This document shows positions 21,966 through 37,356 of a DNA stretch of 64,000 bases, in pieces; position 1 is the first letter of the stretch, and every line of letters begins with the position of its first letter. Source of the stretch: a virus (lineage: Duplodnaviria > Caudoviricetes). The notes below the pieces were generated by a model. That model searched no databases. It saw only the letters and a program-made list of their open reading frames with translations, and was not told where the DNA came from. The position numbers and the translations under genes were made by a program. The stretch is from positions 32,001-96,000 of the IMG/VR virus record IMGVR_UViG_3300032280_000442. One strand, 5' to 3'.

Positions 21966-22700
21966 ATGAATTACGGAAAAGAGTTTCAAAAATTCGCAAT
22001 AGGTGATAGAGGTATCTCAGGACTTAACTTGGATTACTACCAAAAACACATCGAGAGTGTAACTCCATACATTTTGGAAGAAAGAGAGATGAGAGCAACT
22101 CAACTTGATATTTTCTCCCGACTTATGATGGACCGAATTATTTGGGTTTCCGGACCGGTTGAGAGTCAGATGGCATCTATCATCCAAGCTCAACTTATCT
22201 TCTTGGAAACCACCGATAAAAAAGATATCAGTATGTATCTTGACACTCCGGGAGGTTCGGTATTAAGCGGACTTGGAATCAGAGATACAATGAACTACAT
22301 CAAACCGGATGTTGCAACATTGAATGTTGGGATGTGTGCGTCAATGGGTTCAGTATTAGTATCTTCGGGAGCAAAAGGAAAAAGAAGTTCATTAATCTTT
22401 TCAAAAATTATGACACATATGGTGTCTCACGGAACTCAAGGAAATGTTCAAGACACTCGTATCAATCAATTAGAAGCTGAGAAGTATAACTATATGTTAT
22501 TCAAAATCTTGGCAGAGAATTGTGGAAAAACATTTGACGAAATGTATGAGTCGTCAAGAAATGACAAATGGTTCAACTCAGATGAGGCAAAAACATTTGG
22601 TTTAATTGATAACATCGTTGGATTAGAGACAAACAAATCTATGACAGAGATGATGGTTGGGTTTGATGAGTTCTACTCTAAAGAAATATTAAAACGATAA
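21966..22700 (+). CDS. clpP: ATP-dependent Clp protease proteolytic subunit
   Basis: DIFSRLMMDRII, IQAQLIFLE, TPGGSV, GMCASMG (Ser), IMTH (His), RNDKW (Asp). Confidence 0.93.
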   Translation: MNYGKEFQKFAIGDRGISGLNLDYYQKHIESVTPYILEEREMRATQLDIFSRLMMDRIIWVSGPVESQMASIIQAQLIFLETTDKKDISMYLDTPGGSVLSGLGIRDTMNYIKPDVATLNVGMCASMGSVLVSSGAKGKRSSLIFSKIMTHMVSHGTQGNVQDTRINQLEAEKYNYMLFKILAENCGKTFDEMYESSRNDKWFNSDEAKTFGLIDNIVGLETNKSMTEMMVGFDEFYSKEILKR

Positions 22701-23981: not shown

Positions 23982-25100
23982 CTATTGTTGGGGGTTTTTG
24001 TCTTTTATTAGGGAATATAATTTACTTAATTTTTTTGTCATCTTAAGACAAATATTTCTTGTTTGATTAATCTCGTATCTAAAGAATCTTTCATAGTCAC
24101 CACCAAATCTTGTAATTTTACTAAGATATTTATCGTAGTATCTTTCTTTAGCCCCTTTAAAACCAAATAATTCTTCCATAAAGTTATCCACCAAAAACTC
24201 TTTCATATTTCCGGCTTTCCATTGCAATAATGTTTTGAAGAATTGTAATAATGTTAAATCAACCATATCATCATCAGATATGTTCTCTGGGTAATCAATA
24301 TTATTATCGTCGAATGTTTGTTTAATTTGAGGAATGATTAACTTTAAATCTTCTCTTAATTTTTCATAACTTAAGTTAGCCCCTTTTTTATAATTCTCAT
24401 AAACTTTATGATTCGTTATAAATTTGTAAAAATCCTTTTTTGTAATCCCACTCTCTTCCAATGCCGCATACAACTCAGTCGCCCTAACCAAGTTTTCAGT
24501 TGTGTGAGCAAAATACATATAACTCAATAATTCATTCAATGGTGGTATATTACCAAATCTTCTCTGAGAACCAATTTTATAATCAACTCTTTTGTGTGTT
24601 TTAACTATTGGGTCAACAGATTCATCATAAGCGTGTTTTAATTCGTGAGCCAAACTTGAAACCATTAGAGTTCTTTCTTTCTTAAACTCATCAATCACCT
24701 CTTGAGTTGTTACATCTTTATCAATCGCAAAACTAATTGATAATTCAACTTTATTCATATTTTGGTTTACCTCATAATTGAACTTAGCATTCATCTTAAC
24801 TTTACCGTGATGAGTCATCGCGTGCAATAAAATTCTAGGTAATTCCCCGTCCGGATTAGTATAATCATTTATGTCATCAACACTAAACGACACCTTAATT
24901 GTCTTAAACTTATAATCATTAATTTGGAAGTCACCCTTTAATGTAATTTTCTTTTTTATAAAAGAATTGATATTATCATTAGGGTTTAGACTTGATATGA
25001 TTTTGTCATATAGTTCTTGGGCAACTTCAACGATGTTAGTTGGGACACCAACCGCTTCGTTTAATTTTGTATATTGAGATTCTTTAATTTTAATTTTCAT
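23982..25100 (-). CDS. leader-bearing HExxH metallopeptidase-like protein
   Basis: leader MKIKIKESQY..LNE; LAHELKHAY; TATTTAT-N4-ATG. Confidence 0.65.
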   Translation of the reverse strand: MKIKIKESQYTKLNEAVGVPTNIVEVAQELYDKIISSLNPNDNINSFIKKKITLKGDFQINDYKFKTIKVSFSVDDINDYTNPDGELPRILLHAMTHHGKVKMNAKFNYEVNQNMNKVELSISFAIDKDVTTQEVIDEFKKERTLMVSSLAHELKHAYDESVDPIVKTHKRVDYKIGSQRRFGNIPPLNELLSYMYFAHTTENLVRATELYAALEESGITKKDFYKFITNHKVYENYKKGANLSYEKLREDLKLIIPQIKQTFDDNNIDYPENISDDDMVDLTLLQFFKTLLQWKAGNMKEFLVDNFMEELFGFKGAKERYYDKYLSKITRFGGDYERFFRYEINQTRNICLKMTKKLSKLYSLIKDKNPQQ

Positions 25101-25104
25101 ATTG

Positions 25105-25111
25105 ATAAATA
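25105..25111 (-). promoter_or_regulatory. phage TATTTAT promoter-like motif, 4 nt before ATG (representative copy)
   Basis: same motif and spacing at 14622, 26782, 31651, 33949, 34869, 37361, 37760, 39927, 42054, 48477, 52518, 55078, 58442 (minus) and 62283 (plus). Confidence 0.75.
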
Positions 25112-25152
25112 TCTGTGGAAATAAAAAACCCTCCGGAAAAGAGGGTTATATT

Positions 25153-25368
25153 TCATCGTCTTCCGCCACTACGACGGGGTCCTTGCGGATATCCACCATA
25201 ATTTGGTAGGACATAATATGGACGAGGTTGATAATAGTAAAATTGTGGTCTATAAGTTTCGTATCTAACGACAGGTAATGGTTGAGTATAAAATTGGTAA
25301 TGAACCGGTTGGAACCCATTACAAGCAGTTAATAAAAATAAGCTAAGAACTAATAATAATTTATTCAT
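25153..25368 (-). CDS. small Tyr/Pro-rich lipoprotein
   Basis: lipobox LLTAC. Confidence 0.5.
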   Translation of the reverse strand: MNKLLLVLSLFLLTACNGFQPVHYQFYTQPLPVVRYETYRPQFYYYQPRPYYVLPNYGGYPQGPRRSGGRR

Positions 25369-25609
25369 AATAAATAATTTAATTATTAAAGCTAGAATAA
25401 TAAAGCTCTAGTTTTTATAAATATCTCAATTTTTTAAAAATCTCTGGTGACCATATAATAAATTATGAGAGGATATAACAATGTGGTTCCAATAAGGTCT
25501 TCAAGAGTAATATCTTGACCTGAAAGACACATTACAATCGTAAAAAGTAATGTGAATATTAGTCCAATTTTAATGTAAAGAATAAGATATATCATATATT
25601 TATAAGTAT

Positions 25610-25954
25610 ATGAGAACAAAAGAAATAGAACAATCATTAAAGATGTTTTCCAAATTTTTATCTTCAGATGAAGGTAAAAGGGTTGCGCATATTTTCTCAG
25701 ATGACATAGAATTTAGATTAGGACCACGTCAACATTTGAATCCTGAAAGTATTGAGAAAAAAAAGGGAAATTATTGGATTATGGTGGACATAATCTATAA
25801 TAAATCATCTCAGGTTATGATTAATTGGAAAAATGTTCCAAATCACCAAGATATGAGAAAAGAATTGAGACAATGGTTACCATTCTTTGGGTTTTCCAAC
25901 AATGTTGATATTATGATAGTCCACACTAAAAAAGAAGATGATTTTCCATTATAA
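25610..25954 (+). CDS. hypothetical protein
   Basis: TATTTAT motif upstream. Confidence 0.55.
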   Translation: MRTKEIEQSLKMFSKFLSSDEGKRVAHIFSDDIEFRLGPRQHLNPESIEKKKGNYWIMVDIIYNKSSQVMINWKNVPNHQDMRKELRQWLPFFGFSNNVDIMIVHTKKEDDFPL

Positions 25955-26020
25955 ACCAAAAAAACACCTGAAATAGGTGTCATTTTCCACTAAAAGTGGT
26001 ATATTAGTCATTATTTTCCA

Positions 26021-26413
26021 TTAATTTCCTACAGTCTTAACCGGTACGTGGAATTTATCCCAAAACCAATCAATAAATGGTTGTTTCCATTTATCACCAA
26101 AATAACCATTTAATGTTGTATAAACAGTATCATCGTAAATAACCAATTGTGGTGATTTAGTTATAGCATCCTTACGAAGTTCCTCACCCCATTGTTCACC
26201 TTCATCACTAGTCCAATAATCTTCACCATACCATCTGAATACGGTATTATCACCTTCTTCGTAATCTCCTTCATAAAATTCAATTGCGTAGTCCACTTCA
26301 TTACCAAAATCATCAATACCTGGCGTCCAACCAATGTTATTGGTGTCGTAGGTATCGTTCAGGTAGTCAATTACCGCTTGATTTAATTTACTCTCAGTTA
26401 TTATTATTTTCAT
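26021..26413 (-). CDS. leader-bearing protein, W(F/V)xx(K/T)(F/Y) paralog family
   Basis: MKIIITESKL; FIDWFWDKFHVPV. Confidence 0.7.
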   Translation of the reverse strand: MKIIITESKLNQAVIDYLNDTYDTNNIGWTPGIDDFGNEVDYAIEFYEGDYEEGDNTVFRWYGEDYWTSDEGEQWGEELRKDAITKSPQLVIYDDTVYTTLNGYFGDKWKQPFIDWFWDKFHVPVKTVGN

Positions 26414-26414
26414 A

Positions 26415-26777
26415 TTATCTAATTCCGTGTTTTACACTATCCGCATCTTGTTTATAAGTTTCATTAAACCATTTTAATAGTGGTTCATCAAAATTACCAA
26501 AATAACTTGACAATTCCTGAGACAATTTCCAATCCACATATAATCTAACTCCGGGATATGCCGGTCTTGTGTTGCCACCTTTCTCCCAAAAAACCGGACC
26601 ACCACTAACAACGTGAAATAATACGTCATTAGTTTTTGGGTCAAAATATTTATAACCGTGACCAAAAGACATACTTTTAGTCGGTCGTCTTTTTAACCTA
26701 CCCATCTCAGGAAACTTACCCTCGATAAAAGTTTGGATAATATTTTTTCGTTGTTCTTCGGTTATTATAATTTTCAT
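26415..26777 (-). CDS. leader-bearing protein, same paralog family
   Basis: start moved to MKIIITEEQ with TATTTAT-N4; LLKWFNETY. Confidence 0.7.
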   Translation of the reverse strand: MKIIITEEQRKNIIQTFIEGKFPEMGRLKRRPTKSMSFGHGYKYFDPKTNDVLFHVVSGGPVFWEKGGNTRPAYPGVRLYVDWKLSQELSSYFGNFDEPLLKWFNETYKQDADSVKHGIR

Positions 26778-26790
26778 ATCAATAAATATC

Positions 26791-27285
26791 TCACAACAAG
26801 ATATTATCAATAACTTTCCCGATTTCCTTATACACCGGACAATTACAGTGGGGGTCACCTTTACCAATTGGAGGTTCAATTATTGTCCCACCCAAGTCTT
26901 CATATAGTTTGTAGTATTTCTTAACCTTACCATAACCGGTTCGTTTAAGACCACCCCAACCCCAAGAACCCTGAATCACATAAATTTTGGCATTTGGAAA
27001 TGTAATCCATAATGTTTTAAATAATTTTTCAATTCCTTTATCCACATATAGGTCGTTGGTTCCAATACACAGAAAAACATTTTGGACATTGGTCAAAACT
27101 TTATGTCTCTGAACCATTTTTGTAAGGACTGGGACATCAATCCCACCTTTCCATAGTCCAACAACCCTCTCCACTTTTTTTGAGTTCCTATCAACATACG
27201 GAGTTTGGGAATCTCCGATAATAATGTTGTTGGGAATTTGTGAATACCCAACCAAACAAAACAATAAACAAATAATAAATTTCAT
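26791..27285 (-). CDS. secreted SGNH/GDSL hydrolase
   Basis: signal peptide; IIGDS, IGTND, D.H. Confidence 0.7.
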   Translation of the reverse strand: MKFIICLLFCLVGYSQIPNNIIIGDSQTPYVDRNSKKVERVVGLWKGGIDVPVLTKMVQRHKVLTNVQNVFLCIGTNDLYVDKGIEKLFKTLWITFPNAKIYVIQGSWGWGGLKRTGYGKVKKYYKLYEDLGGTIIEPPIGKGDPHCNCPVYKEIGKVIDNILL

Positions 27286-27329
27286 ATTCTCATTAAATTA
27301 AAAAACCCCCGTTTAAATGGGGGTTAGAA

Positions 27330-27539
27330 TTATTTAGACGAAACTAAATAATATGTGGTTCCTTCACGTTTAATATACACGTCTCTTGGATTGTCAACGG
27401 TCGGATGGGTGTTCCAAGTTTCTGTTAAACCTATCTCACCATCCATTGGTTTCATAACACATTTTTTGTCCACGAACTTAATAGTTCTTGTTATTTTAGA
27501 TTCTTCCATAGGTAAGTATAAATAAAAATTATTCATCAA
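27330..27539 (-). CDS. hypothetical protein
   Basis: ORF followed by a terminator; start possibly MEESK. Confidence 0.45.
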   Translation of the reverse strand: MMNNFYLYLPMEESKITRTIKFVDKKCVMKPMDGEIGLTETWNTHPTVDNPRDVYIKREGTTYYLVSSK

Positions 27540-27547
27540 TCAATAAT

Positions 27548-27844
27548 CTATGGTAATATTTTAGTGATTGTTCTGGAACCATTTTTATCCAAATACTTTA
27601 TCACGCAGTTATCCTCATTGAGAATGGAACAATATCCAAATAAAGAAGTAACAAAATCTTCAATCACCATACTCTCACAACCGGGAATGGTGAGCATATA
27701 TTTGTAGGACATATTATCGACATAAGCACCCTTAACATTTTTGAGAATGATTTCAAAATACTTTTTTTGGTTATACCGGACGAGCACCTTTAACTCGGGA
27801 TATAACTCCTTCAAAACTTTTCTGATGATAATCAACTTCTTCAT
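27548..27844 (-). CDS. hypothetical protein
   Basis: K.L..LYP.LKV shared with 21180..21413. Confidence 0.5.
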   Translation of the reverse strand: MKKLIIIRKVLKELYPELKVLVRYNQKKYFEIILKNVKGAYVDNMSYKYMLTIPGCESMVIEDFVTSLFGYCSILNEDNCVIKYLDKNGSRTITKILP

Positions 27845-27864
27845 TTAAAAAATATAAAGAATAA

Positions 27865-27896
27865 TTTGATAATAAGAAACCATTGTCTTATTTTTG
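27865..27896 (+). promoter_or_regulatory. Bacteroidota-type promoter TTTG-N20-TAnnTTTG, 4 nt before ATG
   Basis: tttg 27865-27868; tatttttg 27889-27896; ATG 27901. Confidence 0.7.
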
Positions 27897-27900
27897 TGCT

Positions 27901-29934
27901 ATGGAAAAAGTTATACATAAATTAATTAATGAATTTACCGAAGGGGTGGACACCTATACCCATAATGGTTCCACTTGGTTAATCTTCACCGAATCAAAAC
28001 AATGGGTAATTGAACTAACCGATTCTAAAACTTTGTGGTATAACTACAATTTTTTTAAAAGTGTTTTTTCTTATACCTCAATGGATGTTGTGGATAATCA
28101 ACAATACATCACCAAATGGGTGGAAGATAATGTTATAAATAAAGTTAAAGACACCATTTTGGAAAAAAACATTACGGAAGGTGAAGTTGAAGAAATTATT
28201 GAAAATGGGGTAAAATATACTTCGGTACTAACACATATTGATTTTGGTGAACTTGATGACACCATTCAAAATGGGATAAAAGAAACTCGTTCGGAAATAA
28301 ACATTACTGAAGGTGAAGTTGATGACATCATCCAAGATGGAGTGAAAGAAACATCCAGCAATGTAATGATGTTCCAATCAATGAAGGTTGAAGACACAAT
28401 TCAAAATGGTGTGAAAGAAATTTACGATTATAAAGGTCATAGATGGGATGTTAAAGATGTTATTCAAGATGGGGTGAGAGATATTTCCCCAATGACACAA
28501 TATACTGATTGGCAAGTTGAAGAAATAATTGAAAATGGGGTAAAAGAAATAAACCACATTAAAAATAATGTGAGAGAAACAAAACAATTTGAAGAACATC
28601 TTGCCGACACAATAGATGCTGTGATTAATGAAGGTGTGATTGAAACCAGTCATAGAAGCTTATTGAAAAGAGGAGAAATTGAAGATATCATTGATGGTGG
28701 GGTGAAGAAAACTCTTAACACTGAGTATATGCCTAATGTAATGGTTGAAGACACCATTCAAAATGGGGTGAAACACACCCAAGAAAGGATAGTCATAAAG
28801 AAATCAATAGTTGATGACGCAATTGAAAAGGGTGTGAAACATACCGAATATGGTGATTGGTTAGATGGTGATGAAAGGTTAGATGATATTGTTGAAAATG
28901 GTGTGAAGAAAACATCTTTGAAACGTGGTACTCGTCCATTTATGGTTAAAGATACCATTAAAAATGGTGTAAAGGAAACCAATCCCGTTGATGTTATGAA
29001 GTTTTTTGATAATAAAATGGAAGACGCATTACAAAATGGTGTAAAGGAAACAAAACAAAAAAACAATGCTCTTCTGATTTTAGACACTAGCGGTAGAGAA
29101 CTTATTTTAGAATCACATCTTGTCGTTAGAGATGGTGTGAAGGAAACCAATTACGACACAGATAACTATACAGATGATGTTAAAGAGGTGATAAGAGAAG
29201 GTGTGAAAGAAACCTCTCATCGTCAATACCTTAAAACCTATGATGTTAAGGATACCATTCAAGATGGAACTGAACACGACCGTTGGATTTTGGATGGATG
29301 TGACGACCCTGTTGATGTGGTTCTTGATAATGGTGTGAAAATAACTACACCCTTACTAGCTCGTGAATATACAGGAGACATTGATGAGGTTCTCGGAAAT
29401 GGTGTGAGAACTTCTCACCCACGTCAGTATGTAGGCGGAGATATAGTTGATAAGGTGATTGATAAGGGTATAATAGAAACCCACGATGATGTATATCACC
29501 ACAAAGGAAGAATTGATGGTGTGATTAAAAATGGTGTGAAAGAAACACACAGAGAAATATGTGAATACAAAGAAACCATTGATTATATTATTCAAACCGG
29601 AATTAAAGAAACAAAGACACCCGGCGATGGTGACATTTTATCAACCGTAGAATGGATGAAAGAAAATAACTCAACTAGTTACCCAAAAATGATTGATGAT
29701 GTTATTGAGAATGGTGTTAAGGAAATAAAAACACCTAACAAGGATGGTGATATTCAATCAACATTAGAATGGATGTATAAAAATAATTACCAAGATGATT
29801 ATAATGGTTCCAAAATGATTAATAATGTTATTGAGAATGGTGAAAAGATAAATGGAACTTACGCTGGCGGTCAACGTCAAAGTGAAAAATGTAAATCCGT
29901 TGTTGAATATGGAACAAAAAACCCCACCGATTAA
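27901..29934 (+). CDS. repeat protein: N-terminal paralog-family domain + about 24 '(V/I)xDxIxNGVKET' units with variable inserts
   Basis: repeats counted by hand in the translation; start moved to MEKVI. Confidence 0.8.
   Translation: MEKVIHKLINEFTEGVDTYTHNGSTWLIFTESKQWVIELTDSKTLWYNYNFFKSVFSYTSMDVVDNQQYITKWVEDNVINKVKDTILEKNITEGEVEEIIENGVKYTSVLTHIDFGELDDTIQNGIKETRSEINITEGEVDDIIQDGVKETSSNVMMFQSMKVEDTIQNGVKEIYDYKGHRWDVKDVIQDGVRDISPMTQYTDWQVEEIIENGVKEINHIKNNVRETKQFEEHLADTIDAVINEGVIETSHRSLLKRGEIEDIIDGGVKKTLNTEYMPNVMVEDTIQNGVKHTQERIVIKKSIVDDAIEKGVKHTEYGDWLDGDERLDDIVENGVKKTSLKRGTRPFMVKDTIKNGVKETNPVDVMKFFDNKMEDALQNGVKETKQKNNALLILDTSGRELILESHLVVRDGVKETNYDTDNYTDDVKEVIREGVKETSHRQYLKTYDVKDTIQDGTEHDRWILDGCDDPVDVVLDNGVKITTPLLAREYTGDIDEVLGNGVRTSHPRQYVGGDIVDKVIDKGIIETHDDVYHHKGRIDGVIKNGVKETHREICEYKETIDYIIQTGIKETKTPGDGDILSTVEWMKENNSTSYPKMIDDVIENGVKEIKTPNKDGDIQSTLEWMYKNNYQDDYNGSKMINNVIENGEKINGTYAGGQRQSEKCKSVVEYGTKNPTD
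28180..29925 (+). repeat. degenerate coding tandem repeat, about 66-nt period
   Basis: recurring gat/gaa-acc-att-caa-aat-ggt-gtg-aaa-gaa-ac cores separated by unique sequence. Confidence 0.75.
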
Positions 29935-29948
29935 AGTGGGGTTATTTT

Positions 29949-30065
29949 TTACAATTCAGATTTTAATCTTGAAAGGATTTCGTTGTTTTTATTCATTATT
30001 TTTAACTTCTTAACAACATTTACTCTGTTTTTTTTAGGTTTCCCTATTTTTTTTGATTTAGACAT
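29949..30065 (-). CDS. small basic peptide (38 aa, not in ORF track)
   Basis: hand translation MSKSKKIGKPKKNRVNVVKKLKIMNKNNEILSRLKSEL. Confidence 0.5.
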   Translation of the reverse strand: MSKSKKIGKPKKNRVNVVKKLKIMNKNNEILSRLKSEL

Positions 30066-30091
30066 AATAATGATTTATTTATAAGTATCCT

Positions 30092-30712
30092 TTACCAAGT
30101 TTTATGTATCCATTTTTTAACAATATCATTAGATGTATTAATTATCTTAGCAATTTCTTTAGTAATCATTCCTTCACCCCTTAATTTAATCATTAAATCA
30201 TATTGTTCTTTAGTTAATGACCTTCTAGTCATTGCTCTTTTTGATATTTGTTCTTCAGACCATTTAACCCACGGCTTTTTTTTACCTATATGAGATTTAG
30301 ACATTTTATCTTTTGTTTCATCACTATGAATTCTACCCACATTAAACCCGTTTGGTTTTTTAATACCTTTTAATTTTTCACTACGTTTAAAGTTAGATTC
30401 TTTAGACATTATTATTCCATTATTACCGTCACCACCTAATGTTGCGTTATACCCATTGTGATATGAATCGTATAATTGTATATATTCTATCTCTTTTTTT
30501 AATACAATTTCTTTACTATCTACTTCACATAATGTAGTAACATTCCAAGAATCAACACCATATTTTCGTATTGCATTATAAAATTTACGATTATCTCTAA
30601 TTTTTATTGCATCAGATTTATGCTCGTTCCAACGAAAATCCACAGATTTACTTGTCCAACCAATATAACATTTGTTGTTATTAATATTTTCTATTTTATA
30701 AATAAACGCCAT
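30092..30712 (-). mobile_element. GIY-YIG homing endonuclease with NUMOD3 and HTH
   Basis: FIYKI.N..NNKCYIG.T....RW.EH; GYN.T.GG; HSDETKDKMSKSH. Confidence 0.85.
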
Positions 30713-30717
30713 AATTA

Positions 30718-31074
30718 CTACCACGCCCTACAGCTCCAGTATCGTGCGGAATCTTTTGGTCCTGGATTTTCACAATGATGTCTTGCTCTAAAAGATTTAC
30801 GATGAGATGGACTATTTTTTTTAATTCTCATATTAGGGTCACCAAAATTAACCTTAACAACATTTCCTTTTCCGTTTTTAACATATACCGAGCGTTTTTT
30901 TGGCCCACCAGGAGTTAGAAATGGTTTATTGAGGGTTACTTTACGTCCCTGATATTCAGCTTCAGTCAATAAGTCACCAACAACAAAGTTGGTCTCCTCA
31001 ACTGAACCATAAAAACTATCATCCAAGTTGTTGAATAGTTTGTTGTATTGTGATTCTGTAATTATTAATTTCAT
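30718..31074 (-). CDS. leader-bearing basic protein (DUF6321-like)
   Basis: MKLIITESQY; LLTE|AEYQGRKV.LNKP...RKSFRARH.C...ARYWSC. Confidence 0.7.
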   Translation of the reverse strand: MKLIITESQYNKLFNNLDDSFYGSVEETNFVVGDLLTEAEYQGRKVTLNKPFLTPGGPKKRSVYVKNGKGNVVKVNFGDPNMRIKKNSPSHRKSFRARHHCENPGPKDSARYWSCRAW

Positions 31075-31646
31075 TTTTTTTCGTAATGTGTCATTGTTGG
31101 TTTATTTCCGGTTCCCACTTTTGGGTCTTTCTTTTCAGCTCTTCTCTTTTGTTGTGTCATCGCTTTCTTCTCATTTTTATCATATGAGGAAGCAACCTTT
31201 GGAGTTTCAGATGAAACCTTTTTTGATGGACGACATTTTGGGTATGACTTTCCATCAGCATCTTTTCTTCCACAAGGTGGATGTTTCCCGTCAACTTTTT
31301 TACTTACATCAACCCACTTCTCCTTAAACCATCTTTTCAAATCTTCATTAACATTTTCGTTTTTTGGTTTAATTCCTTTCTTCTTCATATTGATGGCAAT
31401 CGCAGCCTGTTGAGCCGGACTTGACGCTTCGTTAGTTTCCTTTTTCTTTTTTCTCCAACCACCACCTTTTGATTTATATCGTTTGGCAGCAGCTCCATTA
31501 CAATAAGCACTTGGACATACTTTATATCTTGACCTCGCCCAAGCCAAACATTGTGACCATAACGACGGGTTGGTAGGTTTGTTTTCCCCTTCAGTTATTA
31601 AACCTTCCAATATAGTTTCTTGTCTTTCTGTTATAATAAGTTTCAT
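31071..31646 (-). CDS. leader-bearing multi-module basic protein (DUF5872-like modules)
   Basis: MKLIITERQ; KPTNPSLW...PSAY...YKSKGGGW; EDL.RWFKEKWVD...PPCGR...YPKCRP. Confidence 0.7.
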   Translation of the reverse strand: MKLIITERQETILEGLITEGENKPTNPSLWSQCLAWARSRYKVCPSAYCNGAAAKRYKSKGGGWRKKKKETNEASSPAQQAAIAINMKKKGIKPKNENVNEDLKRWFKEKWVDVSKKVDGKHPPCGRKDADGKSYPKCRPSKKVSSETPKVASSYDKNEKKAMTQQKRRAEKKDPKVGTGNKPTMTHYEKK

Positions 31647-31700
31647 ATAAATAAATATCCCCCAACTTCAAAATAGAAACTGGGGGATTAACTTTATTTA

Positions 31701-31961
31701 TTACAGAACACTTCTAACGGGTAAATCATACTTACTCTCAAACCACTCACCTAACAATTCTCTAAATTCAGTTCGTCCAACACAAAAAATATGTTGAACC
31801 TCTTCTTGTAAACCCGCATTAAAAAAAACAATTTCAGCATCAACAGAATATCCAAACGAATCACATCCCTTAATAGGTTTAATCCAACCCGGGTCTTTTT
31901 CATCCGGAATTAGTTCTCCGTAACAAAATGTGTCAAAGTATTTGAATACCAAATTTTTCAT
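31701..31961 (-). CDS. W(F/V) paralog-family protein without leader
   Basis: start MKNLV after TATCTTTG-N4; LGEWFESKYDLPV. Confidence 0.65.
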   Translation of the reverse strand: MKNLVFKYFDTFCYGELIPDEKDPGWIKPIKGCDSFGYSVDAEIVFFNAGLQEEVQHIFCVGRTEFRELLGEWFESKYDLPVRSVL

Positions 31962-32007
31962 TTGACAAAGATACAAATAAAAAACCCACTATCAAAGTGG
32001 GTTTAAA

Positions 32008-32478
32008 TTATATTTCTTCTCCGAAGATATCATCCGTCCAATTCTGAGGAACAAGAATGATTATATATCCTTGTCTAACTTCAATTGATGATTCCGGTAC
32101 TATTCCTTCAAGTTGTTCCATTATCTCAGGTTTATCCTTGAAAACAACTCTCAACTTACCATCGGGAGCGGTGTCAACAACCTTATGGTTAAACCCGTCC
32201 ATAACTTCCTTGAATCTGTCAAGTCCAACTTTTTCAAACTCTTCCTGTTCATCATCAGAATCAATATCTAAGTCTCCACCTAAAAATCTTTCAGGGACAT
32301 TACTCTCCCCACCACTTTTTAGATATTCAATTTCTTCATCAGTCATACCCTCAAGACCAACCTCGTTATATAAATCTAAAATAATATCGTAGTAGTCCAT
32401 ATCGAACTGTTCATTCATAATTCTCATTACAATATTTCTTAAATCAGATTCTGTTAATTTTATAATTTTCTTTTTCAT
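32008..32478 (-). CDS. leader-bearing acidic protein
   Basis: MKKKIIKLTESDL...IMNE. Confidence 0.7.
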   Translation of the reverse strand: MKKKIIKLTESDLRNIVMRIMNEQFDMDYYDIILDLYNEVGLEGMTDEEIEYLKSGGESNVPERFLGGDLDIDSDDEQEEFEKVGLDRFKEVMDGFNHKVVDTAPDGKLRVVFKDKPEIMEQLEGIVPESSIEVRQGYIIILVPQNWTDDIFGEEI

Positions 32479-32512
32479 TTTAATTGTTTAATATAAATAT
32501 GTGGTTATTCTG

Positions 32513-32833
32513 TTACTGACATTGTTTATCGTAAAAATTCCTAAGATAATATCCAAAATTATGTACCATAAAATTATATAAATCATCTTTAGTTTTATTA
32601 TCGACATCTTCACTAGTACTTTGATAAAAATCATCAATAAGGTCTTGAACCATCATATCACAAATATCACTAATGAAATTACCTACACTATCGTATTCAC
32701 AAGCATTATTATTTTCTAAAATTGAAAATTCCAAATGGTTTTTAATTACATTATAATCATATCTTCTACGAAATGCAATTGGTATATTCTCCATCAATAA
32801 ATCTTCCTGTCTCTCAGTAATTATTATTTTCAT
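32513..32833 (-). CDS. leader-bearing protein
   Basis: MKIIITERQ..LLME. Confidence 0.7.
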   Translation of the reverse strand: MKIIITERQEDLLMENIPIAFRRRYDYNVIKNHLEFSILENNNACEYDSVGNFISDICDMMVQDLIDDFYQSTSEDVDNKTKDDLYNFMVHNFGYYLRNFYDKQCQ

Positions 32834-32840
32834 TTAGACG

Positions 32841-33161
32841 TTATAAATAAATTTTAGTTATATAAATTTTCGCATTAGGAATCCATTGCTCAATACTATA
32901 TTCAATCATTGGTAAAATTATTTCAAAATCTTCTCTATCTGTATTTAAATAAAGATTAACATTAACACTAATACCATCAGTTATTTTTATTTCATCAACA
33001 ACAATCTTTTCAACGGAACCAACCTCATTAATTTCATCCATTTCACCCAAACCCCACTCTTCATCAGCCTCTTGACGTAAGTTATTTAACTCATCATCAA
33101 GAATTTCTTGTACTAAAGTTTTTATTTGTCCAACTTTACTTTCTGTAATTATTATTTTCAT
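32841..33161 (-). CDS. leader-bearing acidic protein
   Basis: MKIIITESK. Confidence 0.7.
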   Translation of the reverse strand: MKIIITESKVGQIKTLVQEILDDELNNLRQEADEEWGLGEMDEINEVGSVEKIVVDEIKITDGISVNVNLYLNTDREDFEIILPMIEYSIEQWIPNAKIYITKIYL

Positions 33162-33523
33162 TCTTCAACCAATTTATTAATTATTTCACTTAAACTAATT
33201 CCCAACATATCAATATTAAGCATCGACAAGAAATCATAATAGTCAATTTCATAACCGGTACTTGTATCCACAATAAACCAAATTTGTTTTTCTTGTTTCT
33301 GAACCAAATAGTTATGTCCGTGAATATTTGAGAATAAGTACATCGGACCATAGTTATTTTGATAATGATTAAAAACATCTTTTCTATCACCAAATACATT
33401 ATGTTTTTCTGAACCGGTTAAATTCTCCCAACTTGTAATCATCTCAACACGATGGGTCAAATCATACCCAACATATTTGTTGATTAAGTTTTTAAATTTA
33501 TTTTCGGAAATTATTATTTTCAT
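33158..33523 (-). CDS. leader-bearing protein
   Basis: MKIIISENK. Confidence 0.7.
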   Translation of the reverse strand: MKIIISENKFKNLINKYVGYDLTHRVEMITSWENLTGSEKHNVFGDRKDVFNHYQNNYGPMYLFSNIHGHNYLVQKQEKQIWFIVDTSTGYEIDYYDFLSMLNIDMLGISLSEIINKLVEE

Positions 33524-33524
33524 A

Positions 33525-33944
33525 TTAACTACCTGTATTTAATCCGGGACAACGACCACCTTTACAAGGAGATTTAGGACCATTATCACTACCCCAAAAA
33601 GTTCTTTCCCCTTTTGGTTCAGGAGCTTCAGCAGCATTCTTCTTTGTTAAATCATCAAACTCTTTATACCATTGGTCAAAAGTTTGTCCTTTTTTCTTAC
33701 CTTCAGAATTATCATAAGATTTTTTCCAAACAATTTTATTTCTTTCTTTCTTTAAAGAATCTTTAACAGCAAACGCTTTAGCCCTTTCTTGACGTAGAGC
33801 CTCTGCCTTTTCTTTATTAAGTTCAATTTGTTTTAACCTTTGTTGTTGAGGTGTTAGAATAGTAGTCGTATTCCCACTTGATACCGGAGGTGTTGGTTGT
33901 TCAACCAAATTGTAATACTGAGATTCTGTGATTCTTATTTTCAT
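33525..33944 (-). CDS. leader-bearing protein
   Basis: MKIRITESQY..LVE; TATTTAT-N4. Confidence 0.7.
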   Translation of the reverse strand: MKIRITESQYYNLVEQPTPPVSSGNTTTILTPQQQRLKQIELNKEKAEALRQERAKAFAVKDSLKKERNKIVWKKSYDNSEGKKKGQTFDQWYKEFDDLTKKNAAEAPEPKGERTFWGSDNGPKSPCKGGRCPGLNTGS

Positions 33945-33956
33945 ATTAATAAATAT

Positions 33957-34025
33957 CCCCCAACTCCGAAATAAAAGGGGGCGGGGGGATTTGAAAACGA
34001 CCGGAGGGAGTTCGGGTCCGGAAAG
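33957..34025 (+). repeat. dispersed G-rich repeat family R1, copy 1
   Basis: cccccaactccgaaataaaagggggcggggggatttgaaaacgaccggagggagttcggg; further copies at 37383 and 37768. Confidence 0.85.
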
Positions 34026-34094
34026 ACATAAAAAAAATTCACTGGATTATTTACTAGGTTAAAAATAATTACTATCTTTACAAAAAAAATAAAG

Positions 34095-34541
34095 ATGGAA
34101 AAAATTATAAAATTGTTAGAAGAACATAGACAAGAGTTCTTAAATGTGGTGGATAATTTCTATGATGAAAAATACCCAACAAAAAAACCAAAAACCCTAT
34201 GTACATTTAAAGTTGCGGGAAAACATTACGATAGTGACGTATTCACAAAAAATTATAGGTCGTTCTTATCGGATTTGACCTCATCGATGGGTCCCAAAGC
34301 ATTTAAAAAAGTTTTGGGGAGATATGTGGAATTCGACCCAAAAGATTTTCCTAAATCAGTTTTAGAAAGAGGACAATACGAACAAATCAATGACGCATTC
34401 TACTTATCCACATATTCCTCAACAGAAACAAAAATAAGTCACATTGTAGATTTATGTGAATTCTTAGATATTCCATTAGAATTAGAATATCCAAAAACTT
34501 ACTACACCGACATCGCAAGACAATTAGGTATTATACAATAA
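34095..34541 (+). CDS. hypothetical protein
   Basis: ORF with promoter-like tatctttac upstream and terminator downstream. Confidence 0.6.
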   Translation: MEKIIKLLEEHRQEFLNVVDNFYDEKYPTKKPKTLCTFKVAGKHYDSDVFTKNYRSFLSDLTSSMGPKAFKKVLGRYVEFDPKDFPKSVLERGQYEQINDAFYLSTYSSTETKISHIVDLCEFLDIPLELEYPKTYYTDIARQLGIIQ

Positions 34542-34576
34542 AAAACAAACCCCTTCTTTTCAGAGGGGGTTTTAAT

Positions 34577-34864
34577 TTATTTTTTGCGGATAAAAGTGAA
34601 AGACCCTTTTCCGTCAGTTCTTTTATAAGTTTTTCCTGATGGGTCGGAACTTAAATCTTTAACTCCTTCAATGTTACGTTCAGATGTGTTATTTAAGTTA
34701 GTAATAATTATCTTATCACCATTTACTCTATCAATTTTAAGAGATTGGTTTTGAGATTTTAATCCGTTGGTTACCATATTTCCAATGAAGACATTTCCTG
34801 AACCAATCATAAGACCTTGTTCTGAAATTAAATCATATTGTGATTCTGTTATAATAATTTTCAT
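34577..34864 (-). CDS. leader-bearing protein
   Basis: start moved to MKIIITESQY..ISE with TATTTAT-N4. Confidence 0.7.
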   Translation of the reverse strand: MKIIITESQYDLISEQGLMIGSGNVFIGNMVTNGLKSQNQSLKIDRVNGDKIIITNLNNTSERNIEGVKDLSSDPSGKTYKRTDGKGSFTFIRKK

Positions 34865-34895
34865 ATTAATAAATATACACCAATCCAAAAAAAAA

Positions 34896-35333
34896 TTACA
34901 CCTTACCAAACATATCAAAGAACTTATCCTTGTTTGTTCTTTCGGGGGGAAAGATAAATGACTGAACGTGAAAGGATACAAATTCCATCTCACTACCATA
35001 GGTCATTTTAAAATAATCCCCAATCTCCTTACCGTATTCATTCTTACTTTTCTTCATTCCATTATGATTATCAAAATATAAATCAATACCAACCAAATAC
35101 TTGTATACCGGGTCAAAAGTCATTGGGTTATAAACAGTCTGTTCTCTATACCCAACCGAAACAATATTCAAAATCTCGGGACACATCTTTACAACAACAT
35201 CCTTGAATGTTGAAGGAATAACAATTTCCTTATTATCAGGAAATTCATTGAAGGTAGGTTCCGGTGTGGCAATCCGAGACGGAACACCAACATAGGGTCC
35301 ATCATAAAATAAAATATTATCTTCGTTTTCCAT
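34896..35333 (-). CDS. hypothetical protein
   Basis: start moved to MENEDN. Confidence 0.55.
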   Translation of the reverse strand: MENEDNILFYDGPYVGVPSRIATPEPTFNEFPDNKEIVIPSTFKDVVVKMCPEILNIVSVGYREQTVYNPMTFDPVYKYLVGIDLYFDNHNGMKKSKNEYGKEIGDYFKMTYGSEMEFVSFHVQSFIFPPERTNKDKFFDMFGKV

Positions 35334-35340
35334 ACTATCT

Positions 35341-35766
35341 CTATAATTGAATTGGTAATAATCTTTCAGGTAGATATTGTTCAGGACAAACAATGGTTAT
35401 ACTATCAATGTAACCCGGATAATCCAATAAGTAACTCATATCCACCTCATAGGTTTCCCTATAGTTCAACACAATATACGGAGTGGTAACCTTATTGTCA
35501 ATTTTGATTCGAACCTTTTCAAAATCAAATTGCATAAAACGATATTCTCCATTAACTTCACCCATCAGTTTTACAACCGTTGAGGTTTCACTCTCGGAAC
35601 TCACCGAACCGGCAATCAAAAAGAACGAACCCGATGTGTGAGTCTCCGTCACATCCTTATTGACCAACTGTCTCAAATAAATTCTATCACTATGATAATC
35701 TTTATATTCCCTTGGCTGACATCCAACCATCAACAACACAGCAAATAATAACAATAACTTTTTCAT
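35341..35766 (-). CDS. lipoprotein
   Basis: lipobox LMVGC; SGSFFL; promoter TATCTTTG at 35784-35791. Confidence 0.65.
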   Translation of the reverse strand: MKKLLLLFAVLLMVGCQPREYKDYHSDRIYLRQLVNKDVTETHTSGSFFLIAGSVSSESETSTVVKLMGEVNGEYRFMQFDFEKVRIKIDNKVTTPYIVLNYRETYEVDMSYLLDYPGYIDSITIVCPEQYLPERLLPIQL

Positions 35767-35793
35767 CTTAATATATTTTTAAACAAAGATACA

Positions 35794-35823
35794 AATAAAA
35801 AACCCCACAATCAAGTGGGGGTT
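35794..35823 (-). repeat. terminator/promoter composite repeat
   Basis: aaataaaaaaccccacaatcaagtggggtt, near-identical at 36193-36221 and similar at 31975-32004. Confidence 0.75.
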
Positions 35824-35830
35824 AATTTTT

Positions 35831-36133
35831 TTACTCAGCAGAATCAAATAGCTGATTCCATCTCTTACCTTCTTCGTATGGATTACTAACATACTTGTTA
35901 AGTTCCACCATCGCCTCACTTACATTCGTAAATGGAATCTCCTTACATCCTACTCTAACAACACACCCCACACTCAAGAAACGAAGTTCAATAGTGTACT
36001 CTCTTAAGATTTGTTGTTTGTTCGGAATGTACTCTTTAGTTAATTCCCCTCCGTTACCTGTTGGTCTTGATTCAGACATCATTGGTCTGTCCCCAATTTC
36101 TCTCGGTCTTTCTGTTACGTCTTCTCCGTACAT
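35831..36133 (-). CDS. hypothetical protein
   Basis: start moved to MYGED; GCVVRVGCK. Confidence 0.55.
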   Translation of the reverse strand: MYGEDVTERPREIGDRPMMSESRPTGNGGELTKEYIPNKQQILREYTIELRFLSVGCVVRVGCKEIPFTNVSEAMVELNKYVSNPYEEGKRWNQLFDSAE

Positions 36134-36225
36134 AATATTTTTGATTAATAATTTATAATACCCAAACATAGACATTTGACTTTTAATAGTCAAATAAAAA
36201 ACCCCACAATCAAGTGGGGTTAATA

Positions 36226-37356
36226 TTATTTTATTTTTTTACTAATAGTCAGGATTCTATCTGTTGGTGAATAAACTGGTGGTTCAGGACTTTCCCAATA
36301 TCTACGACCCTGTATTATTTTATAATTACGGTATATTGGTCCATTTGATATTAAGATATAATCTGACTTATACGACAATTTAGGTGGTCTATTCCTATGT
36401 GAAAATGGAATATAATATTTACCATCTAAAGTATAGATTCCATTATTTTTAGCATTTACCGGTTGAAAAATTATTTTTTTCCCTTCATTCTCAACCACAA
36501 TTATTTCAGAATAATCGGTTTTTGTTGACGGACAAAAATTTTGAACAACTCTTGAATTAGGTAAGAATTTTTGAATATACGGTTCATAATTACTTTTAGA
36601 CATAAAAGTTGGTTTATAACTAATATTTTTAAGTAAAGTATTTAAAAATTCACCTTTAAATAACATTTCTCTTTTATCGTACACCCATTGAACAAAATCG
36701 TTATGTTCAAAAGTTTTCATTTGTTTAATATACGATTTAATAATTAAACTTATTGGGTCGTTTTCAAATATAACATAATTAAGTTTTGACCAACTAACAC
36801 CATTTTCATTAATAGAATTTGGTAGTGGATAAATATTTAAAAATCCTTCGGTTTTATCACAATATTTTGAATCATAAACACCATAATTATCACCATAGAT
36901 TTCTTTTAATGATTTTTCAATAACATTACGAAGGTCTTTACAGTAATTGTTATCACAATAACCTTTGTTAGACCTATAAACTTTTGAACGTTCATAAAAT
37001 AATCGTTCAGTTTCTTTCTCAGATAACTTACCAATATGTCGTTCAAACTTTTCATCAAAATTAATATTATATTTTCTTCTAATATCTGATAAATTCATAT
37101 AAAAATTTGAATTACCTGATTTTTGAACCAAATCTGCATCAAATATATATTCCTTCCCTGTTGTAATATCTGTGAATATAAACATTTCAGTTTCCGGATT
37201 TTTTTCAAATCGTCCCGTTGACTTAAATTGGACCATATAAATTCCAAACTGAGGTAATAAATGAGGTTCACTAAACCCATTAAAATCAATACTCTGAGTT
37301 TGTTCCTCAATCTCCTTTAATATTCTATACTGTTCTTCTGTTATAATAATTTTCAT
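36226..37356 (-). CDS. leader-bearing large hypothetical protein
   Basis: MKIIITEEQY.ILKE; TATTTAT-N4. Confidence 0.7.
   Translation of the reverse strand: MKIIITEEQYRILKEIEEQTQSIDFNGFSEPHLLPQFGIYMVQFKSTGRFEKNPETEMFIFTDITTGKEYIFDADLVQKSGNSNFYMNLSDIRRKYNINFDEKFERHIGKLSEKETERLFYERSKVYRSNKGYCDNNYCKDLRNVIEKSLKEIYGDNYGVYDSKYCDKTEGFLNIYPLPNSINENGVSWSKLNYVIFENDPISLIIKSYIKQMKTFEHNDFVQWVYDKREMLFKGEFLNTLLKNISYKPTFMSKSNYEPYIQKFLPNSRVVQNFCPSTKTDYSEIIVVENEGKKIIFQPVNAKNNGIYTLDGKYYIPFSHRNRPPKLSYKSDYILISNGPIYRNYKIIQGRRYWESPEPPVYSPTDRILTISKKIK

Follow-up and report, generated by a model that had tools for sequence, protein, structure and literature searches.

The 3' part of a gene of a lake jumbo phage is probably a CRISPR-type array that has been kept readable as protein, through capture of DNA, selection, and exchange of units. 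The gene, here called the array gene (27901..29934, plus strand), encodes 677 aa without an internal stop and consists of a head domain and a translated repeat-insert array. It lies in the window, as we call the whole analyzed stretch of 64,000 nt, which belongs to a complete phage record of 308,574 bases with terminal repeats. The source phage also contains a bS21 gene (G000:C1:272389-272547), the score of which was over the cut-off. By its bS21 gene and by its genome size of 308,574 bases, it corresponds to the bS21-encoding freshwater phages of Bacteroidota, which have genomes of up to about 330 kb (PMC9723584).

Architecture of the array gene

A promoter motif, TTTG-N20-TAnnTTTG, is located 5 nt before the ATG of the array gene (27865..27896, plus strand). 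We take this motif to be the Bacteroidota-type consensus used by the host polymerase; it occurs 11 times in the 64-kb window versus 2.8 times expected. The promoter suggests that the transcript may be early and leaderless. The head domain belongs to a W(F/V) paralog family and extends over 73 residues up to a Trp codon (27901..28119, plus strand). It is followed by 25 repeats of 36 nt, which encode 12-aa cores, and 24 in-frame inserts (28120..29925, plus strand). This count is from a profile scan, which gave 0.2 false cores for each shuffled protein. A motif scan detected 23 clear cores; the two additional cores of the profile scan are the one fused to the head at 28120 and a weak terminal one at 29890. 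A unit consists of a 36-nt repeat and an insert, usually of 30 nt, and the modal DNA period of the array is 66 nt. Fourteen inserts have a length of 30 nt, three of 33 nt, two of 36 nt, one of 27 nt, two of 60 nt, one of 78 nt, and one of 90 nt; all 24 lengths are multiples of three. Thus, an initial annotation of this DNA was right in describing about 24 constant 12-aa cores in an in-frame, repeat-spacer-like array, preceded by a W(F/V)-family head and a host-type promoter. The subfamily of the array gene is present as a single copy in the source genome.

The repeats were compared to the active repeat, the consensus of the sister arrays described below. Mismatches number mostly 6-12 in the 5' half of the array and 10-18 in the 3' half, so that 24 of the 25 copies, with 6-18 mismatches, are not near-identical. 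The first repeat (28120..28155, plus strand), which is fused to the head, where it makes up the second half of the final helix, has 11 mismatches and is therefore probably no longer an insertion site. The tenth repeat (28744..28779, plus strand) is identical to the active consensus when one degenerate position is ignored, which ties the array gene to the acquiring sister arrays. Two long, related inserts of 78 and 90 nt (29614..29817, plus strand) represent the commonest insert family, which was found in 104 of 137 full-length proteins, nearly always near the C-terminus. Units 1 and 3 and units 22 and 23 are the only related insert pairs inside the gene.

As seen in the sequence, an 8-bp GC-rich hairpin lies across the stop codon and precedes a T run (29920..29949, plus strand). 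It is terminator-like and faces a gene for a GIY-YIG/NUMOD3 homing endonuclease (30092-30724, minus strand), which is convergent on the array gene; the position of this neighbor is not conserved in related loci. A larger region of the window (23982-37356) contains many short genes with a common MK(I/Y)II(T)E-type leader, several of them with a W(F/V) motif at the end, which together form a large paralog set. The window also contains a gene for a phage-encoded ClpP protease (21966-22700, plus strand). Outside the window, repeats with a period of 72-75 nt were found (G000:C1:224500-228700), which presumably resemble DUF285/BspA-type surface-protein repeats.

The initial annotation had recognized no family for the encoded protein, and none emerged from Pfam, PHROG, NCBIfam, Rfam, or ESM Atlas. 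Searches with Foldseek and VIA-align gave no meaningful match, the models of the repeats being of low confidence, and the best structural neighbor of the ESM model was DUF4097 (TM 0.32). AlphaFold reached a pLDDT of 35 with the single sequence. With 66 homologs, it predicted the head confidently (pLDDT 76-96 for residues 1-80) as a helix, four strands, and two helices; the repeats were given as low-confidence helices and not as a solenoid. At this confidence, the prediction does not argue against the solenoid scaffold proposed in the initial annotation. The cores are amphipathic with an invariant Gly, and no signal peptide was seen in the sequence. Together with the early promoter and the selected 10-aa peptides (see below), these properties fit an early cytoplasmic protein that could plausibly bind host proteins multivalently or serve as a decoy for them, a role we propose tentatively.

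Sister arrays have near-identical repeats and grow at one end

A DNA pattern built from the core retrieved 77 viral loci, among which several clades have near-identical repeats. Between near-consensus repeats, 94 of 96 inserts are exactly 30 nt long, giving the fixed repeat and spacer lengths (36 + 30 nt) of a class 2 CRISPR array. These 30-nt inserts have no positional consensus, and their GC content is 40% versus the 33% expected for phage DNA. The arrays are polarized: 51 of 59 have cores that degenerate toward the 3' end (p 1e-9), and the share of singleton inserts declines in this direction from 49% to 30%. The rare Gly codon GGG is found in 81% of the cores of the 5' third, in 30% of those of the 3' third, and in 13% of cases genome-wide. 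These frequencies indicate that the Gly codon of fresh repeats drifts back to genome usage in old repeats. Acquisition at one end with decay at the far end is also reflected in the host matches of one sister array (L012), which are best at units 1 and 2.

A second W(F/V)-family gene with an in-frame 36 + 30 array is located outside the window (G000:C1:4084-4575, corresponding to L285:1085-1576; minus strand). It has four repeats and three inserts, and its peptide core differs from that of the array gene. Relatives of this array have 3-8 copies of the repeat (repeat B), which are near-identical, while their inserts are wholly different, and fresh B arrays of close relatives have no inserts in common. 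In close relatives, arrays of this second type continue to acquire inserts.

Some inserts of fresh arrays match host chromosomes

Several contigs carry two array-bearing paralogs, often in tandem, one of them fresher (L009, L012, L081, L083, L099, L102/L110, L111, and L116). In the upstream paralog of L012, insert 2 matched the MAG of a freshwater Flavobacteriales bacterium at 29/30 positions, antisense to a GH92 gene, and for insert 1 this MAG has a 28/30 match, located upstream of a rhodanese gene. Inserts 6 (25/30; rpoC, antisense) and 7 (26/30) of this paralog matched other species of the genus of this MAG. A 25-base probe of insert 2 also matched a non-array site in two metagenome contigs. 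Inserts of B arrays matched two genomes of one genus, G542 (29/30; sense, S9 peptidase) and G544 (28/30; antisense, ribosomal protein S1). This is a second matched genus within the host family of the L012 matches. The phage with the match to G542 covers 61% of the source genome at 79% identity. Four inserts of sister arrays thus match foreign DNA at 28-29/30, as spacers do. A control with 401 random Bacteroidota genomes yielded a best E-value of 1e-4. The host matches begin and stop at repeat edges and are mostly out of frame or antisense, showing that the inserted peptides are new sequence. No PAM was visible in the six protospacers.

For the inserts of the array gene itself, no source was found in its own genome, in 191 genomes of the host order, in G542 and G569, or in viral contigs. 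The inserts of a fresh array (L061) had no source among INPHARED phages, 125 host-family genomes, and all species genomes, and no insert source was found for L009, L291, and the source genome's own B array. When all inserts were compared to three phage genomes, only scattered single matches outside of arrays were detected. A 24/25 match of one AT-rich insert to the source genome was discounted; it overlaps the phage promoter motif. Some inserts of the array gene are also present in fresh sister arrays, one of them at 32/33 nt. Since repeat and units are shared with the sister arrays, we infer a host origin for the inserts of the array gene as well.

The repeat is a DNA-level element

By column conservation, repeat B is 36 nt long and has its start shifted upstream by one base relative to the codon frame, an edge confirmed by two host matches. 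The repeats of the array gene (repeat A) and of the second array are identical at 24/36 positions at offset 0 and are read in different frames. Moreover, the Cas13b repeat of Flavobacterium columnare matches repeat A at 23/36 and repeat B at 22/36 in exact register. The maximum among 602,713 random phage 36-mers was 22/36, and back-translation nulls gave p values of 0, 0.003, and 0.006. Twenty-two VI-B-like repeats were fetched with a pattern derived in part from repeat A; the unbiased comparisons are that to repeat B, which was found without any VI-B pattern, and that to the published F. columnare array. Taken together, the identity of A and B in different frames and the likeness to the Cas13b repeat beyond chance argue for an element at the DNA level. 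The 3' third of the phage repeats differs from VI-B repeats, and for this reason VI-B repeats score only p about 1e-3 with a whole-repeat weight matrix. No bacterial array carrying the phage repeat itself was found, and no non-coding VI-B-like array was detected in viral contigs or three phage genomes. A bacterial VI-B-like array in an Ancylomarina MAG (L038:621-1909) has 19 repeats with up to 7 differing positions, which is unusually variable for CRISPR.

These data bear on whether the protein could be an ordinary repeat protein, in which the last helix of the head was duplicated and the loops were diversified solely by mutation and unequal crossover. The two cores agree with the terminal helix-turn-strand motif that is native to the W(F/V) paralogs and start at its conserved Trp, and exchange between units is real (see below). 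A paralog beside the second array (G000:C1:3304-3636, minus strand) has no array and ends in a single copy, 26/36 to repeat B, which is possibly an ancestral or a collapsed site. However, such a process accounts neither for the DNA-level identity of repeats whose reading frames differ nor for repeat-bounded matches to host chromosomes at 28-29/30. It is already contradicted for the sister arrays, and for the array gene we regard it as most improbable. The fit of the cores to the native helix is compatible with two origins of the array: a bacterial array may have been captured, or the gene end may have converged on an integrase site.

Inserts and cores are under selection as protein

All 490 of 490 distinct inserts keep the frame. 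For comparison, only 87 of 189 real VI-B spacers would keep the frame without a stop. Between nearest insert pairs, the coding frame gave a pN/pS of 0.31 (0.26-0.37) and the mirror frame one of 0.49, while the values of the other four frames were about 1 or higher. Variation in the cores falls at wobble positions. Frame maintenance and the low pN/pS show that the protein is under selection. An early stop would spare the head and cut off the older units; none survives, which argues that the tail of the array protein is needed.

The tail could instead be a tolerated, functionless by-product of erroneous integration by host Cas1-Cas2 at the repeat-like end of a gene. The lack of common inserts in fresh B arrays of close relatives would agree with this, as would the poorly predicted repeat region, which may be disordered. 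Yet the frame is kept in every insert over up to 29 units although a stop in the first insert would leave the head intact, pN/pS is 0.31, and some units are kept in more than 100 of 137 proteins. We therefore give this explanation very little weight.

Another explanation is that the array acts as RNA, its antisense strand providing mimics of Cas13b-like crRNA or guides that target host transcripts, with the open frame being secondary. The reverse strand resembles the Cas13b repeat, and phage arrays without cas genes but with host genes as targets have been described (PMC7162821). In the array gene, however, 24 of 25 cores have 6-18 mismatches, mostly at wobble positions, and the inserts drift synonymously in the coding frame. 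No Rfam match was obtained; the consensus palindrome of the core shows no covariation, and its function as a hairpin was dismissed. In addition, guides derived from at least three of the six matched inserts would have the sense of the host mRNA. A function as RNA is thus highly unlikely, and we return to the array as a selected protein.

Units are lost and exchanged within a shared pool

Homologs of the array protein are abundant: the searches gave 483 proteins, 36 phage loci, and, at 50% identity, at least 411 clusters. The inserts of 137 full-length proteins form at least 256 families, including 103 singletons (Chao1, about 380). Unit number and order vary among relatives, as the initial annotation had anticipated: homologs have 5-31 units, and unit order is 94% concordant versus 62% in shuffles, while 157 of 529 family pairs were found in both orders. 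The inserts had further been described as almost all unique and as hypervariable. They are nearly unique within the gene, but each of the 24 is also present in homologs, and 22 occur in at least 11 of the 137 proteins. Instead of varying in place, they are heritable and under purifying selection.

The closest homolog has 13 of 22 families in common with the array gene. Even with a head identity of 95% or more, proteins have only 40% of their unit families in common, and the linkage between insert and core switches within the core. From this sharing, the linkage switches, and the pairs in both orders, it follows that loss, duplication, and exchange of units take place via the repeats and are superimposed on an order common to the arrays. 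Variant sharing between adjacent repeats shows only a mild excess (803 versus 696), and one insert was present in both paralogs of a single contig. Diversification by unit exchange, an idea of the initial annotation, is thus supported in part: loss and exchange do occur, but exchange merely re-sorts the units, and new ones arise by capture of host DNA, as seen in the sister arrays.

Which integrase extends the arrays

We propose that a host type II-C Cas1-Cas2 acts in trans on the phage arrays; its substrate would be host DNA that breaks in the course of infection. There is a precedent in F. columnare, where a VI-B array with 36-nt repeats is filled in trans by II-C Cas1-Cas2, mostly with 30-nt spacers, and about half of the new spacers are host-derived (PMC8092290). 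In agreement with such an enzyme, host II-C spacers are 30 nt long in 27 of 32 cases. The genus matched by B inserts has cas1 in three of three genomes (G542, G543, and G544), and a cas9-cas1-cas2 locus is present in G542, where the spacers are 30 nt long.

The main competitor is that capture and protein use are as proposed here but the integrase is encoded by the phage and is unrecognizable as, or unrelated to, Cas1. Under this explanation, the system would be a heritable random-peptide library, in which peptides are selected, matured, and traded, and of which the array gene is a mature product. Several observations favor it. The newest units of the phage arrays are at the 5' end, which is opposite to the VI-B array, where in this repeat orientation leader and newest spacers are at the 3' end (PMC8092290), in accordance with the L042 layout. 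The II-C repeats of the host family measure 46-47 nt rather than 36 nt and have a modest fit to the phage repeats, in both orientations. Twenty incomplete MAGs of the genus that supplied the two newest L012 inserts showed no cas1. No Cas13b was found in 125 host-family genomes, although the search controls also gave no signal; the missing PAM and the spread of the system over at least 411 clusters at 50% identity point in the same direction.

On the other hand, CRISPR loci are often missing from MAGs. The complete source genome had zero matches to cas1, cas4, reverse transcriptase (RVT_1), and tyrosine integrase (PF00589), none of 26 phage contigs had cas1, and no candidate enzyme travels with the array gene. 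The insert length of 30 nt is that of host II-C spacers, and II-C integrases extend 36-nt VI-B arrays even where their own repeat is longer (PMC8092290). We therefore rank the host enzyme first and an unrecognized phage enzyme second, the latter being rather unlikely.

A model for capture, selection, and aging

In our model, an integrase duplicates the 36-nt repeat at the end of the head-coding part and adds a 30-nt piece of host DNA, so that the newest unit is beside the head. Sister arrays display this step, and for the array gene it is presumed. Only inserts that are in frame and free of stops persist and then, like the cores, evolve under purifying selection on the protein, as the substitution data show. 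Old units are lost, duplicated, and traded by crossovers inside the repeats, as the homolog comparison shows, leaving each phage with its own subset of a common pool in roughly chronological order. The amphipathic 12-aa helices may space the 10-aa peptides, and the widely kept units may be the useful ones.

The array gene probably represents the aged state of such an array, in which capture has stopped and units persist as selected, exchangeable cassettes. This view is based on its decayed first repeat, on the 6-18 mismatches in 24 of 25 repeats, and on the fact that all its units are old members of the pool.

If the model is correct, a CRISPR-type memory is used as protein instead of guide RNA. 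It would also provide a natural route from random DNA to selected peptides that can be traced in time along one gene, with fresh, host-matching inserts at the head end and conserved, lengthened modules at the far end. With such dated units, the birth of peptides de novo would become measurable. Fresh arrays would identify the hosts of uncultured lake jumbo phages. The odd polarity and the hosts without visible cas1 would suggest either that II-C Cas1-Cas2 is flexible in a way not yet recognized or that a new enzyme records the DNA.

Comparison with known systems

Diversity-generating retroelements drive protein diversification enzymatically, by means of a reverse transcriptase, a template repeat, and adenine changes. 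Integrons add whole-gene cassettes in a polarized manner by a tyrosine integrase. The phage arrays share enzyme-driven diversification with both and polarized unit addition with integrons. Unlike a diversity-generating retroelement, the complete genome has no RVT_1 match, and the array is a single copy with no template repeat. In contrast to an integron, there is no PF00589 match, the core palindrome is without the covariation of attC hairpins, and the units are peptides smaller than a gene.

TALEs and the LRR proteins of Flavobacterium and Dictyostelium likewise consist of tandem units with local variation and variable number and order (PMC10392669). What varies in the phage arrays, however, are 10-aa inserts derived from foreign DNA, and no family is matched. 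The survey of such hypervariable repeats discarded translated CRISPR ORFs as artifacts in its genome-scale pipeline (PMC10392669). In the full-text literature searched, which includes a minority of subscription papers, there is no description of a translated, protein-selected CRISPR-type array. By this literature, in-frame capture of host DNA would be a new way of generating protein sequence.

Like the cas-less CRISPR arrays of huge phages, the arrays described here are phage-borne, have no acquisition genes, and contain some spacers that match host chromosomes; those arrays, however, are non-coding and thought to act as RNA (PMC7162821), whereas the present array is selected as protein. The closest parallel is the F. 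columnare VI-B array, with its 36-nt repeat, mostly 30-nt spacers, many of them host-derived, and no cas1 of its own (PMC8092290). It differs from the phage array, which is located inside an ORF and translated, has repeats that decay as codons, retains no 29- or 31-nt spacers, and carries its newest units at the opposite end. Moreover, the neighbors of the array gene are small phage genes and the GIY-YIG gene, with no adjoining ORF of Cas13b size. Thus, the array grows like a Cas1-less CRISPR array, yet it is not a member of type VI-B: it has no effector, its polarity is opposite, and it is translated.
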